Assembly (NCBI GenBank): GCA_036500585.1
Contig: DASYBT010000029.1
Span: 1-32,000 of the forward strand
Length of the DNA: 32,000 nucleotides
Source of the DNA: Rhizomicrobium sp.
GTDB taxonomy: Bacteria > Pseudomonadota > Alphaproteobacteria > Micropepsales > Micropepsaceae
Reading direction: 5' to 3'
The stretch's first letter is position 1. Every line of letters starts with the position of its first letter. The notes below the pieces were generated by a model that searched no databases, was not told the origin of the DNA, and saw only the letters and a program-made list of their open reading frames with translations. The translations under genes were made by a program, and so were the position numbers. Shown one piece after another: positions 2,411-5,578 of the stretch.

Positions 2411-3136
2411 GTGGCCGAGAAATTTCTGGCAGCGTTCGACTTCATCGATCGCGTCAAAGAGATCGACACCGTCGAGGAACTCGTCGCCGCCTTTCAGGGC
2501 CTGATCGGCCAGTACGGGTTCGGAGCATATTGCGTCGGGAATGCCACCGCACCAAAGCTCGCCGTTGAGGATCGCGTTTGGTGCGCCACCTGGCCGGATG
2601 GCTGGGCCTCGGTCTGGCAGCAGAAGAACTTCGCGGCGGTCGATCCGGTCGTGTACCAGTTGCTCGCGACCTCGGTGCCGTTTCGATGGAGCGACGTACG
2701 ACAACGGGCCGACGAATCCGGTGCCGAAGTGATGGACGTCGCGGCCTGTGATTTCCGGATGCGGGATGGGCTCGGCATCCCCGTTATTCGGCACGGCCAG
2801 ACAATCGGCATCACCATCGCCGGCGAACAGTGCGACCTGAGCGAGCGGGACAAGGGATCGCTCCATATGGCCGCGATCTACTTCCAGGCACGCCTCGAGA
2901 AACTGCGCGCCGCGGCACCAAGGCCGGTCAAGCAGAAACACGGCCTTACGACCCGTGAGCGGGATTGCATCGCGTGGGCCGCGGCTGGCAAGACCGACTG
3001 GGAAATCGGCCAAATCCTGTCGATAGCCGAGCAGACGGTTCATTCGCACGTCAGAAATGCGCTGCGAAAGCTGGACGCGATGAATCGCACGCATGCCGTC
3101 GCAATCTGCATGGCACACGCCCTGATCCGGCCTTAG
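2411..3136 (+). CDS. LuxR-family acyl-HSL-type transcriptional regulator (autoinducer-binding domain + GerE HTH)
   Basis: GTG 2411 is preceded by GGGGAG (2401-2406). In the N-terminal domain the W65/W69/D78-P79/W93 spacing equals TraR W57/Y61/D70-P71/W85. The C-terminal HTH reads LTTRERDCIAWAAAGKTDWEIGQILSIAEQTVHSHVRNALRKL. Confidence 0.9.
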   Translation: MAEKFLAAFDFIDRVKEIDTVEELVAAFQGLIGQYGFGAYCVGNATAPKLAVEDRVWCATWPDGWASVWQQKNFAAVDPVVYQLLATSVPFRWSDVRQRADESGAEVMDVAACDFRMRDGLGIPVIRHGQTIGITIAGEQCDLSERDKGSLHMAAIYFQARLEKLRAAAPRPVKQKHGLTTRERDCIAWAAAGKTDWEIGQILSIAEQTVHSHVRNALRKLDAMNRTHAVAICMAHALIRP

Positions 3137-3145
3137 CAGCCGTCA

Positions 3146-3163
3146 ATCCCGAATCCTCGGGAT
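3146..3163. promoter_or_regulatory. 18-bp perfect dyad ATCCCGA-ATCC-TCGGGAT: lux-box-like operator candidate (or luxR terminator stem)
   Basis: The 7-bp arms are perfectly complementary with a 4-nt spacer. The dyad lies 10 nt after the luxR stop (TAG 3134-3136). Its centre is about 64 nt upstream of the luxI-fusion start codon. No T-tract follows it. Confidence 0.4.
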
Positions 3164-3217
3164 GGCACAGCCCGCGTTGACCATGGCTCCGTTCCGGCAC
3201 TTCGGGGAGGAACCGCC

Positions 3218-4861
3218 GTGCTGATGGAAGTCGTGTCGCGTGAAAACCGCGATGGTTATCAGGACCAGATCGAGCAGATGCATCGGCTGCGCCACCGCGT
3301 CTTTGTTGACCGGCTTGGATGGAAGGCGCTGCAAAAGGCCGACGGCCGCGAACTGGACGAATTCGACAACAGCGATGCCATCTACCTGCTGGTGACTGAC
3401 GGCGCGCGTGTGGTCGGCTGTCACCGCATCATACCGACGGTCAAGCCGCACCTCATATCCGAGGTGTTTTCCGACTTCTGCGACGTCCGCGGCGTGCAGC
3501 GCGGTCCGGGAATCGTCGAGTGCGGCCGGACCTGCATCGACGAGGAGCGCCTTACGCGGGCAGAAGCCAGAATCGCGCGCCACGTCCTGATGACTGGGGT
3601 CATGGAGTTCTGCCTGCGAGCCGGCGCCACAGGCTTCACCGGCATCAACCCGATTTCCGTCATGAGCCGCTACCTCCGGATCGGCTGGAACATTCGTCCT
3701 TTGGGCATTCCGCGCCGGATGGACGACGGCGAGACCTACGTTGCGGTTTCGTATGCCGTCAGCCCAGCGGCGCTTGCCGCCGCCCGGCACGCGTACGGCA
3801 TTGACGGCGACATCGTGGTGTATCGCGGCGGCGACACGCCGCTGAAGCAGCTTCTTGCTGCCGAGGAAGTTCGGCGCGGCGATCACGTCAGCAAGGAACA
3901 GGTGGAACAATTCGAGCGGGACGGCGTGATCGCCATCCGGAACTCGCTATCCGGCCAGGCGATTGAGGAGCTGCGCGACGCGCTCGACGAGCTTGGCCGC
4001 GACGTCGGCAAAACGGCGACTGGTTATGACCTGACCGTCTTGCGCACGGCAATCTTCGACGGCGGAAATGCCGCCGCGGCCGCAGGCGGCGCGACGCAAC
4101 ACGACGTGACCTCGCTTACGAGCGTCATACGCGCGTCCGGCAAACGCGCGCTGACCGAGCCGCTCCACGAGCAGTGTGCAGGTCATTTTGTGCTCGACAC
4201 GACGACGTGGATGCGAAATGCGGCCGTTCGCCGGATCGCGCTGGATTCGCCCCTGCCGAATATCGCCGCCGCGCTCCTCCGCGCCTCGAAGGTTAATTTC
4301 TGCGACGATCAGATTTTTCTGAAATCGCCGCACACGATCGACCGCACGGCGGTGCATCAGGACTGCACCTATTTCCATCTCGACGGCGAGCAAGGCTGCG
4401 TCATGTGGATTTGCGTCGACGACGCAGATGCGAAATCCGGCGCGCCGTTCTACCTGCGCGGCTCGCATCGCTGGGGCCGCGAGTTCGCGCCGAACGTGTT
4501 CATGGCGCAAACCCGGCTTCCGGGAAGCGCTGGCGACGATCTCGACGACATCGAGGAACGGCTATCGGCCTTCGATACGATCACATTCGAAACGCATCCT
4601 GGTGACGTGATCGTCCATCACTTCCGCACGGTGCATGGGGCTGGCGGCAATCTCTCGGATCATCCAAGGCGTGCGCTATCCTTGCGCTATGCCGGCGAGG
4701 ACATGCGGTTCCGAAGACGGCCTGGCGCGCCGGAGCAGCCGCACCACCGTCATTCGTTGCGCGATGGCGACCGCCTGGACAGCAGGCAGTTTCCGGTCGT
4801 GTGGCCCCGCCCGTTCCCGGAATTCCGCATCTCCTCCCTCTATTCCGGCTCTGCACAATGA
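3218..4861 (+). CDS. Fusion protein: LuxI-type acyl-homoserine-lactone synthase (aa ~1-205) + PhyH-type Fe(II)/2-oxoglutarate dioxygenase (aa ~225-495)
   Basis: This is a single 547-codon ORF. GTG 3218 lies 7 nt after GGGGAGG, and ATG 3224 is an alternative start. The N-terminal part (RLRHRVFVDRLGWKALQKADGRELDEFDNSDAIYLL...VVGCHRIIPTVKPHLISEVF) is typical of the LuxI family in BjaI/RpaI style. The linker is AAEEVRRGDHV. The C-terminal part (SKEQVEQFERDGVIAIRN...AVHQDCTYFH (H380-x-D382)...DVIVHHFRTVHGAGGN (H473)...RRALSLRY) is typical of phytanoyl-CoA-dioxygenase-like enzymes. Confidence 0.85.
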   Translation: MLMEVVSRENRDGYQDQIEQMHRLRHRVFVDRLGWKALQKADGRELDEFDNSDAIYLLVTDGARVVGCHRIIPTVKPHLISEVFSDFCDVRGVQRGPGIVECGRTCIDEERLTRAEARIARHVLMTGVMEFCLRAGATGFTGINPISVMSRYLRIGWNIRPLGIPRRMDDGETYVAVSYAVSPAALAAARHAYGIDGDIVVYRGGDTPLKQLLAAEEVRRGDHVSKEQVEQFERDGVIAIRNSLSGQAIEELRDALDELGRDVGKTATGYDLTVLRTAIFDGGNAAAAAGGATQHDVTSLTSVIRASGKRALTEPLHEQCAGHFVLDTTTWMRNAAVRRIALDSPLPNIAAALLRASKVNFCDDQIFLKSPHTIDRTAVHQDCTYFHLDGEQGCVMWICVDDADAKSGAPFYLRGSHRWGREFAPNVFMAQTRLPGSAGDDLDDIEERLSAFDTITFETHPGDVIVHHFRTVHGAGGNLSDHPRRALSLRYAGEDMRFRRRPGAPEQPHHRHSLRDGDRLDSRQFPVVWPRPFPEFRISSLYSGSAQ

Positions 4862-5130
4862 ACACTCGGTCACCAAAAATCCGCGACGCCAAACCTCTCG
4901 TCCGCACAAGCGCGGTCTCCGGCCGACGCGATTCACCGCTCGATCCGCGCTCCGAGGCCGTCATGGAGCAGTTGCTGGCACTCCTGTTGTCGATGAAGGA
5001 GTTGGGTTTGGCTGACGAAGCCGAGCCCTACGTCGACGCCCTGATGAAGATCGTCTACGATCACGGAAAGCGCTCTCAGCGAGCCTCCGCAGGCAACGAT
5101 TCCAATCGGCAGCGCTCGGGGTTGATTTGA
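4858..5130 (+). CDS. Small hypothetical protein, translationally coupled to the LuxI-PhyH gene
   Basis: ATG 4858 overlaps the TGA stop at 4859-4861 (ATGA). The product is 90 aa. An alternative internal start is ATG 4963 (MEQLLALLLSMKELGLADEAEPYVDALMKIVYDHGKRSQ...). I recognised no family. Confidence 0.4.
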   Translation: MNTRSPKIRDAKPLVRTSAVSGRRDSPLDPRSEAVMEQLLALLLSMKELGLADEAEPYVDALMKIVYDHGKRSQRASAGNDSNRQRSGLI

Positions 5131-5136
5131 GGGTGT

Positions 5137-5165
5137 TTGACATTTGTGACGGCGTGACAGAATCT
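5137..5165 (+). promoter_or_regulatory. Candidate sigma70-type promoter (perfect -35 TTGACA, 17-nt spacer, GAATCT) with TGTGAC/GTGACA direct repeats
   Basis: TTGACA lies at 5137-5142 and a -10-like hexamer at 5160-5165. The spacer contains TGTGAC GGC GTGACA. The element sits directly upstream of the XRE reading frame. Confidence 0.4.
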
Positions 5166-5203
5166 TCTATGAAGCAGGCGACATTTCCCAGCGAGCGACG
5201 GAA

Positions 5204-5578
5204 CTGAACCGCGATAGCCCGTCAGTCAAGCGGCCAGGCGACACCGACATTCGTGTCGGTCAAAACCTGCGCGCGCTCCGCGTCGCACGCGGGCTTTCTC
5301 AACAGCAGCTCGGCAAGCAACTCGGCCTCACCTTCCAGCAGGTTCAAAAATACGAGCGTGGGATCAACCGCATCGGCGCCGGACGGCTATTCGACGTCGC
5401 GAGATTGTTCGGCGTGAGCGTTCTATTCTTCTATGCGGAACCCGGTTCGCAACCCGAGCTTGGCGGCAAAAGTCCTACCGAGGCAGAATTCCTGGCCGAA
5501 TTGGGCCGTCTTCCGGAACTGAAAGACCGTCGCCAGCTGTTGGCGAATATCCGGCGGTTCGTCGCGCAACGCACCTGA
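5204..5578 (+). CDS. XRE-family helix-turn-helix regulator; start codon unresolved (possible pseudogene)
   Basis: This gene is not in the ORF track. The frame is open from 5150 to TGA 5576-5578. It encodes ...DIRVGQNLRALRVARGLSQQQLGKQLGLTFQQVQKYERGINRIGAGRLFDVARLFGVSVLFFY..., a textbook HTH_XRE. There is no in-frame ATG/GTG/TTG upstream of the HTH. The coordinates given start at the in-frame CTG 5204. ATG 5169 is in another frame and stops after 12 codons. Confidence 0.6.
   Translation: MNRDSPSVKRPGDTDIRVGQNLRALRVARGLSQQQLGKQLGLTFQQVQKYERGINRIGAGRLFDVARLFGVSVLFFYAEPGSQPELGGKSPTEAEFLAELGRLPELKDRRQLLANIRRFVAQRT

Follow-up and report, generated by a model that had tools for sequence, protein, structure and literature searches.

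A luxR gene followed by a luxI::phyH fusion

We analyzed a stretch of 32,000 nucleotides (nt) from Rhizomicrobium sp. (assembly GCA_036500585.1, contig DASYBT010000029.1, positions 1 to 32,000; here called the window), in which a LuxI-type acyl-homoserine lactone (acyl-HSL, or AHL) synthase is joined in frame to an oxygenase of the PhyH family. The fused open reading frame (ORF), luxI::phyH, spans positions 3218 to 4861 on the forward strand; as the original prediction, made from sequence alone, had it, ORF analysis and translation give 547 uninterrupted codons, which begin with GTG and end with a TGA stop. The NCBI annotation starts two codons later, at ATG 3224, and yields a protein of 545 amino acids (P0001, "acyl-homoserine-lactone synthase [Rhizomicrobium sp.]"). 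A ribosome-binding site read from the sequence, GGAGGA (3206 to 3211, forward strand), lies 6 nt 5′ of GTG 3218. Directly upstream, also as predicted, is luxR (2411 to 3136, forward strand), which encodes an AHL-receptor-type transcription factor of 241 amino acids (Autoind_bind, E = 2e-22; GerE, E = 3e-17).

Approximately amino acids 2 to 215 of the fused product (3221 to 3862, forward strand) form a LuxI-type acyl-HSL synthase domain, and approximately amino acids 218 to 545 (3869 to 4852, forward strand) form a PhyH-family Fe(II)/2-oxoglutarate oxygenase domain; alignment of fused with split relatives places the junction and linker at approximately amino acids 202 to 221 (3821 to 3880, forward strand; YRGGDTPLKQLLAAEEVRRG). 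The Pfam searches proposed with the original prediction gave significant matches for both halves: Autoind_synth (PF00765) on residues 14 to 175 (E = 8e-31; 107.4 bits versus a cutoff of 24) and PhyH (PF05721) on residues 232 to 486 (E = 2.4e-28; 100.3 bits versus a cutoff of 22), the latter covering profile positions 1 to 213 of 213.

All motifs on which the two assignments had been based, namely the LuxI hallmarks and H380/D382/H473/RRALSLRY, are found at the predicted positions. The conserved R/F/W motif of the LuxI half is RLRHRVFVDRLGW (amino acids 23 to 35); DEFD (47 to 50), GCHRI (R70), and ECGRT (E101 and R104) are likewise kept, with Gly replacing the usual Ser between E101 and R104 (conserved LuxI residues in part after PMC3704786). 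As for the oxygenase half, the codons of H380-Q-D382, the first two facial-triad ligands (4355 to 4363, forward strand), and of the distal iron ligand H473 (4634 to 4636, forward strand) specify residues that are invariant in all 20 clade members aligned, as are R484, S488, and R490 of the R484-R-A-L-S488-L-R490 motif (4667 to 4687, forward strand). By analogy with PhyH-family structures, this last motif presumably binds the C5 carboxylate of 2-oxoglutarate. Given the invariant iron triad and Arg/Ser/Arg motif, the oxygenase is expected to be active.

Reality and history of the fusion

The identical 545-amino-acid protein is encoded in an independent Logan assembly (L095). Five more fused proteins (P0002 to P0006; 551 to 562 amino acids), all from other samples, are 71, 67, 49, 48, and 47% identical to the window protein, and the same luxR lies upstream in those fused homologue loci for which DNA was at hand (L001/L002 and L003). 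The source is a metagenome-assembled genome (MAG) and stop and start codons overlap in split relatives, so a 1-nt sequencing error could fuse two adjacent genes; however, an independent assembly encodes the same protein, five fused homologues have diverged from it (47 to 71% identity) and all share the linker motif Y-x-G-G-x-T/V-x-L/I-x-x-L-L/I, and the linker is confidently modeled. The chance of such an artifact is negligible, and we consider it essentially ruled out. The LuxI::PhyH-family in-frame fusion is a real bifunctional gene, and its architecture is genuine, as predicted, rather than the product of a frameshift.

An AlphaFold2 model of the whole chain, based on a 64-sequence alignment, has a mean predicted local distance difference test score (pLDDT) of 94.6 and a predicted template modeling score (pTM) of 0.77. 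The linker is modeled as an ordered helix (residues 209 to 218; pLDDT, ∼81 to 84), not as a disordered tether. A Foldseek search found no solved structure covering both domains, since the query-normalized template modeling (TM) score was ≤0.40 for any PDB chain.

Alignment of fused with split proteins identifies the linker as the C-terminal tail of a former LuxI joined to the N terminus of a former PhyH. The LuxI-tail motif given above is present in all six fused proteins, and split LuxI tails resemble it; in the window group, the linker is 13 to 17 residues shorter than in P0004, P0005, and P0006. Neighbor-joining analysis sorts the fused proteins into three lineages: the window protein with P0002 and P0003 (100% bootstrap), P0004 with P0005 (100%), and P0006. 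These three nest in a clade with the split operons L004, L005, L009, and L010 (99% in a concatenated analysis), and monophyly of all six fused proteins was recovered in 0 to 9% of bootstrap replicates. This history would be consistent with several fusions or with one fusion followed by fissions, two courses that the trees do not tell apart; the linker motif cannot separate them either, because it descends from the ancestral LuxI tail. The weak joint monophyly of the three lineages suggests that a physical connection between the two enzymes has been selected or tolerated repeatedly.

Split luxR-luxI-phyH operons are widespread

The fusion described in the original prediction stands, but the prediction missed a widespread split luxR-luxI-phyH operon. 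Four metagenomic split homologues of the oxygenase half (P0009, P0010, P0012, and P0020; 53 to 59% identity) all lie in the order luxR, luxI, phyH on one strand, and in all four contigs the luxI stop overlaps the phyH start. For a broader survey, we searched one genome per GTDB species with a profile of the clade to which the oxygenase half belongs, kept 80 loci, and scanned each with purpose-built LuxI, LuxR, and PhyH hidden Markov models (HMMs). At 63 of the 64 informative loci with a full-length clade member, luxI is directly upstream of the oxygenase gene on the same strand; the sole informative exception, without LuxI, is in an Acidimicrobiales MAG (L086). Another 4 of the 80 loci were uninformative, with the gene at a contig edge, and 12 (L073 to L075 and L077 to L085) carry a related PhyH subfamily that has no adjacent LuxI and matches the clade profile only from position ∼75 to 83 on. 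Thus, the survey of fused versus split orthologues, suggested with the original prediction, shows the split form to be near-universal and the fused form to be rare: none of the 80 species-representative loci is fused, and the best 150 matches of an exhaustive HMMER search, which covered 1.84 billion representative proteins, included one other full-length fused representative (P0003). The window fusion is a rare form, known in three lineages, of a widespread and tightly coupled gene pair.

Carriers of the split pair include Rhizomicrobium MAGs; cultured Hyphomonas (H. jannaschiana VP2, H. oceanitis SCH89, H. chukchiensis, and H. sp. CY54-11-8); Hirschia litorea; and MAGs assigned to Hellea, Algimonas, Robiginitomaculum, Litorimonas, and other Caulobacterales-type lineages. 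The module is present twice in Hyphomonas sp. CY54-11-8 (L018 and L031) and in H. chukchiensis (L041 and L050). luxR is usually just upstream of luxI; two loci instead have it downstream and in the opposite orientation. At one locus (L045, 794 to 3259), the upstream position is taken by two luxR genes in tandem, reminiscent of the "double luxR" topology of sphingomonads.

We determined the distance from luxI stop to phyH start at 63 nonredundant split loci, with phyH starts picked heuristically. The genes overlap by 1 to 17 nt, mostly by 4 nt or 1 nt, at 31 of these, implying translational coupling; the remainder have gaps of 1 to 20 nt (12 loci), 47 to 115 nt (5 loci), or 206 to 311 nt (13 loci), or an undetermined distance (2 loci). 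The loci with the longest spacers (L020, L023, L039, L044, L049, L052, L055, L056, L057, L061, L066, L067, and L069) belong to Hellea, Algimonas, Robiginitomaculum, Litorimonas, and others.

LuxI, LuxR, and PhyH have diverged together: their identity matrices from 59 loci correlate with one another (r = 0.88 to 0.97; Mantel test of LuxI versus PhyH, P = 0.001). PhyH is the most conserved of the three: mean pairwise identity is 49.5% for PhyH, 38.1% for LuxI, and 37.4% for LuxR, and PhyH identity exceeds LuxI identity in 90% of pairs. One group of loci (L007/L012, L013, and L015) has swapped partners, in that its LuxI (53%) and LuxR (46%) resemble the L042 type, whereas its PhyH instead resembles the L004/L005/L010 type (60% to L005; 100% bootstrap). 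This mismatch of lineages indicates that the oxygenase has been exchanged between synthase/receptor pairs.

Relatives of the two halves

The closest solved relatives of the LuxI half are BjaI (phmmer E = 3.6e-32), RpaI (E = 1e-28), and MesI (E = 3e-22), followed by TofI, LasI, and EsaI, which use acyl-ACP. Fold comparison gives a similar ranking (Foldseek TM scores: BjaI, 0.91; MesI, 0.89; RpaI, 0.86; TofI, 0.86; LasI, 0.77), so that sequence and structure agree on the placement near the BjaI/RpaI/BraI branch that was made originally by eye. This proximity to the coenzyme A (CoA)-dependent BjaI/RpaI/MesI synthases suggests, at the level of homology, that the window synthase may use acyl-CoA. 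A TraI-type AHL synthase equivalog was considered and rejected: scores fell below the cutoffs of NF052393 / NF010408 (86.7 versus 250 and 94.7 versus 292 bits).

MysH is the closest solved homologue of the oxygenase half (phmmer E = 3.5e-33; Foldseek TM, 0.76 to 0.83), followed by SnoK/SnoN (TM, 0.71 to 0.80), EvdO2, EctD, and proline or leucine hydroxylases. The reaction proposed for MysH is hydroxylation, in a free mycosporine, of the α-carbon of an N-linked glycyl group, with C-N cleavage as the consequence (PMC10666671). For all of these close solved relatives (MysH, SnoK/N, EvdO2, EctD, and the proline hydroxylases) the substrates are free small molecules; none uses a CoA ester. Human phytanoyl-CoA hydroxylase (PAHX; PDB 2A1X) is a marginal match (E = 2e-3), and PHYHD1 is also distant (E = 2e-5; TM, ∼0.63 to 0.65). 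We therefore rejected assignment as a phytanoyl-CoA 2-hydroxylase proper, that is, a PAHX orthologue, since PAHX is a remote match and MysH and SnoK/N are far closer. Assignment as a MysH orthologue was rejected as well, on the grounds of ∼25% identity in the structural alignment, a clade insertion of ∼45 amino acids, and luxR/luxI neighbors in place of mys genes.

The clade has ∼45 residues more than MysH, and the LuxI-less PhyH subfamily lacks similarity to it in the N-terminal 75 to 100 residues; this region is a candidate specificity or docking element. Viral contigs yielded a single match to the oxygenase half, on IMG/VR contig L092 (6001 to 6816), which belongs to this LuxI-less subfamily; with it included, matches of the subfamily to the clade profile begin at position ∼75 to 106. 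Distant LuxI homologues (23 to 38% identity to the N-terminal half) occur in a few phage genomes, such as those of Acinetobacter phage MD-2021a and Pseudomonas phage Y5; the linked oxygenase was not found in those LuxI-bearing phage records (H145 to H149).

The LuxR pocket and an intergenic dyad

The pocket of the window LuxR (residues 61 to 79; 2591 to 2647) reads W61-P-D-G-W65-A-S-V-W69...D78-P79, where CviR, QscR, and RhlR have Y-P-x-x-W-x-x-x-Y...D-P at the aligned positions. In solved LuxR structures (TraR and LasR), these positions contact the signal head group. The original prediction had noted an atypical pocket, and the feature extends well beyond the window: of 62 PhyH-linked LuxRs, 57 have Trp instead of the ligand-contacting Tyr that corresponds to TraR Tyr53. 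TraR Trp57 corresponds to Trp in 27 sequences, Leu in 28 (the Hyphomonas type), Phe in 5, and Tyr in 2, and TraR Tyr61 corresponds to Arg (30 sequences), Trp (19), Tyr (11), or Phe (2); Asp and Pro, at the equivalents of TraR D70 and P71, never vary. The canonical YPxxWxxxY is found in the LuxRs encoded next to two related luxI genes that lack a PhyH (L093 and L094; n = 2). The Trp-for-Tyr substitution in PhyH-linked LuxRs hints at an altered signal head group, a lead rather than proof.

The predicted dyad between luxR and luxI is present: a repeat search identified ATCCCGA-N4-TCGGGAT (3146 to 3163), an 18-bp element that forms a perfect 7+7 inverted repeat. In L001, L005, and L010, the corresponding position also holds G+C-rich dyads. 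The window dyad is plausible as a candidate LuxR-binding (lux-box-like) site or, alternatively, as a luxR terminator hairpin.

Earlier reports of luxI-linked phyH

The pairing of luxI with phyH is not itself new, since luxR-luxI-phyH synteny has been published for Novosphingobium and other Sphingomonadaceae (2010 to 2016; PMC3704786, PMC4288048, PMC5012321). The same synteny was found in a metagenomic clone (a cosmid) by Hao et al. (2010), as cited in the papers of Gan et al., and those papers explicitly leave the reaction of the bacterial PhyH undescribed (PMC3704786, PMC4288048, PMC5012321). Full-text literature searches found no functional study of a luxI-linked phyH and no LuxI-oxygenase fusion, in agreement with the original prediction, which knew of no characterized LuxI-dioxygenase fusion. 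What our analysis adds is the fusion, which is of modest novelty, and the finding that the pairing is near-obligate and widespread outside the sphingomonads, has undergone fusion repeatedly, and goes together with an altered receptor pocket. The role of phyH beside luxI has been an explicit open question since 2010 to 2016 and is now directly testable in cultured strains, with Hyphomonas jannaschiana VP2, H. oceanitis SCH89, H. chukchiensis, and Hirschia litorea at hand.

The sphingomonad novI-linked phyH may belong to a different PhyH lineage. There is no sphingomonad among the 80 genome loci kept, and of three sphingomonad plasmid matches to the oxygenase half, the two inspected (L089, Novosphingobium resinovorum, and L091, Sphingopyxis macrogoltabida) are not luxI linked. 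Plasmid searches with the LuxI half and with a VirB-linked LuxI (P0060) returned rhizobial and Bradyrhizobium TraI-type matches only.

Possible role of the oxygenase

On balance, though with no great confidence, we regard the C-terminal domain as a dedicated signal-tailoring oxygenase that acts on the signal itself. That the two genes are almost always linked, often translationally coupled, and repeatedly fused argues for an oxygenase that belongs to the pathway of the synthase and is made in roughly stoichiometric amounts. PhyH is the most conserved of the three proteins and has been swapped between LuxI/LuxR lineages, which would fit recognition of the lactone/amide end common to the signals of all members, not of the variable acyl tail. 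In the mechanism that we propose, a LuxI domain of the CoA-dependent branch would make an acyl-HSL, and the oxygenase domain would serve as its dedicated partner in signal biosynthesis, most likely hydroxylating the nascent or finished acyl-HSL at or near the invariant head-group end, rather than the acyl-CoA donor. The secreted signal would then be a modified HSL; the adjoining LuxR, with Trp in place of Tyr, would read it and probably activate the operon via the 3146-to-3163 dyad. To our knowledge, every known difference among AHLs stems from the acyl donor that LuxI selects, and in the literature that we searched we found no dedicated tailoring enzyme in AHL signal synthesis.

A more specific and decidedly more speculative version is that the oxygenase modifies the conserved head group and not the acyl tail, by hydroxylation of the homoserine-lactone ring or of the carbon next to the amide nitrogen (the latter as proposed for MysH, and turning the AHL into another molecule), and so creates an unrecognized signal class. 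Such a class, should this rather unlikely version hold, might be read by a dedicated LuxR subfamily (Tyr53 to Trp in 57 of 62; Trp57 to Leu in 28 of 62), and it could conceivably be widespread in Hyphomonadaceae, Rhizomicrobium, and relatives, and prophage-borne in the window. If the product were a new signal chemotype, synthetic biology would gain further orthogonal signal/receptor pairs, and the biosensors and mass-spectrometry target lists in standard use for AHLs would be overlooking this signal class in marine and soil Alphaproteobacteria.

Several points weigh against a tailoring oxygenase that acts on the signal. Family membership does not predict substrate, and an inter-domain channel in the fused enzyme is hypothetical. 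The set of PhyH-negative LuxRs used for comparison is tiny (n = 2, plus three solved receptors). Sphingomonad strains with phyH beside novI have been reported to make ordinary AHLs, as does NovI alone in Escherichia coli (PMC5012321); their phyH may, however, lie outside the window clade. Finally, tailoring of the precursor is possible, since this LuxI branch uses acyl-CoA and the name-giving PhyH acts on a CoA ester.

According to this last alternative, the main rival, which we judge improbable but deserving of serious consideration, the oxygenase acts on the acyl-CoA donor and introduces a hydroxyl group or a double bond, perhaps at C2 as in the phytanoyl-CoA hydroxylase reaction, and LuxI then transfers the modified acyl group to S-adenosylmethionine. 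The similarity of the LuxI half to three solved CoA-dependent synthases above all others speaks for it, as does a Pfam family named after a CoA-ester 2-hydroxylase, and fusion or coupling would favor hand-over of a scarce modified CoA ester. Yet PAHX itself matches marginally (E = 2e-3) and PHYHD1 only reaches a TM of ∼0.63 to 0.65, while MysH, SnoK/N, and EvdO2 use free small molecules; the order of both genes and domains is always synthase, then oxygenase; and a PhyH that is more conserved than LuxI and exchanged between lineages is unexpected if it has to match a lineage-specific acyl chain. The C2-hydroxylation of a CoA thioester to give a 2-hydroxy-HSL that the original prediction put forward is weakly supported, because it rests on the family name, whereas the nearest solved relatives use free small molecules.

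The oxygenase might instead quench the signal of its own synthase. Other oxygenases are known to inactivate AHLs oxidatively. Here, hydroxylation of the carbon beside the amide nitrogen would split the AHL into an amide and a keto-lactone and thereby limit or reshape signal build-up, and the reaction proposed for MysH, in which the carbon adjacent to nitrogen is hydroxylated with ensuing C-N cleavage (PMC10666671), provides a precedent. We think this quite improbable, since it is hard to see why a synthase would be fused or translationally coupled, in stoichiometric amounts, to an enzyme that destroys its product, and the systematically altered receptor pocket suggests a different ligand, not less ligand.

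Lastly, the oxygenase could be a passenger, regulated by quorum sensing and working on an unrelated metabolite but merely cotranscribed with luxI, as proposed by Hao et al. (2010) for their metagenomic clone, in the account given by PMC3704786 and PMC5012321. Its co-directional arrangement and tight spacing with luxI agree with this, in that its expression would be under quorum-sensing control. However, the clade occurs essentially only beside luxI (63 of 64 loci), in many genera and in differing neighborhoods; it is fused to LuxI in three lineages; and the LuxI-less subfamily differs in its N-terminal region. Such exclusive linkage would not be expected of a regulon member, and we give this explanation, too, little credence.

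Neighboring genes and the probable prophage setting

A small gene of 90 amino acids (4858 to 5130, forward strand) overlaps the fusion stop by ATGA and appears to be translationally coupled to it. Homologues, which share the core motif MEQLL..LL....GL.DEA.P, lie directly after phyH in L003, L004, L005, L007, L010, L013, and L015, and the gene is absent or undetectable in Hyphomonas-type loci; no Pfam or PHROG match was found for it. Judged by this distribution, it is a conserved fourth gene of the Rhizomicrobium-like subclade. Next comes a homologue of an XRE-family helix-turn-helix (HTH) regulator (5150 to 5578, forward strand), 68% identical to that of the fused locus L003 (tblastn). Its frame is intact but lacks a canonical start: the codon at 5204 is CTG (TTG in L003), and translation from the first in-frame ATG/GTG/TTG, at 5405, would leave out the HTH. 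The gene either has a noncanonical start or is decaying. An XRE homologue is found within 4 kb at 35 of 70 luxI-phyH loci and also at L094, a locus without PhyH.

Upstream of luxR, on the reverse strand, is a phage-type DNA methyltransferase gene (650 to 1555; N6_N4_Mtase, phrog_67). An ORF on the same strand (99 to 1007) overlaps it by ∼360 nt, has no Pfam/PHROG match, and may be spurious in DNA of 65% G+C. A siphovirus-like or gene transfer agent (GTA)-like structural block occupies 6880 to 30150 on the reverse strand and encodes tail fiber, distal tail protein, baseplate hub, tape measure protein, tail tube, and capsid; the tail fiber is of the DUF2793/Gly-rich type, and the GTA TIM-barrel distal tail protein (1,348 amino acids) shares 49% identity with its counterparts in Rhodobacter capsulatus phages. 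Because the luxR/luxI::phyH module lies between the methyltransferase and the structural block, it is probably prophage cargo; the 32,000-nt window contains no tRNA gene. Mobile-element genes also occur near relatives of the module (resolvase/TrwB; ArdC and an integrase; a relaxase and AlpA). With the module probably on a prophage, phage carriage may be connected with host signaling.

Comparison with known systems

The published arrangement most similar to that in the window is novR-novI-phyH (Gan et al. 2013, 2015, 2016; Hao et al. 2010), which shares the order luxR, luxI, phyH, the co-directional and tight spacing, and, often, mobile-element genes nearby; unlike in the window, the genes are separate and no fusion has been reported. 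BjaI, RpaI, and MesI (PDB 5W8A, 6WN0, and 6WNS) are the best matches to residues 1 to 205, have the LuxI catalytic residues, and are encoded next to a cognate LuxR, but they are single-domain proteins of ∼200 to 220 amino acids, with no oxygenase in the solved chains, and are only ∼32% identical to the window synthase.

MysH (PDB 9C9N) shares with the oxygenase half the HxD...H triad, the Arg motif, and a similar N-terminal strand (FERDGV). It differs in that the window clade has ∼45 extra residues (approximately amino acids 259 to 327), and its substrate, the glycyl group of a mycosporine, is unrelated to AHLs. PAHX and PHYHD1 have in common with the oxygenase half the PhyH Pfam family, the double-stranded β-helix fold, and Fe(II)/2-oxoglutarate chemistry. 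Like the window LuxR, the receptors TraR, LasR, QscR, RhlR, and CviR combine Autoind_bind and GerE domains, and the window protein retains residues equivalent to W57, D70, and P71; in contrast to these canonical LuxRs, the window LuxR has Trp at the equivalents of both Tyr53 and Tyr61.

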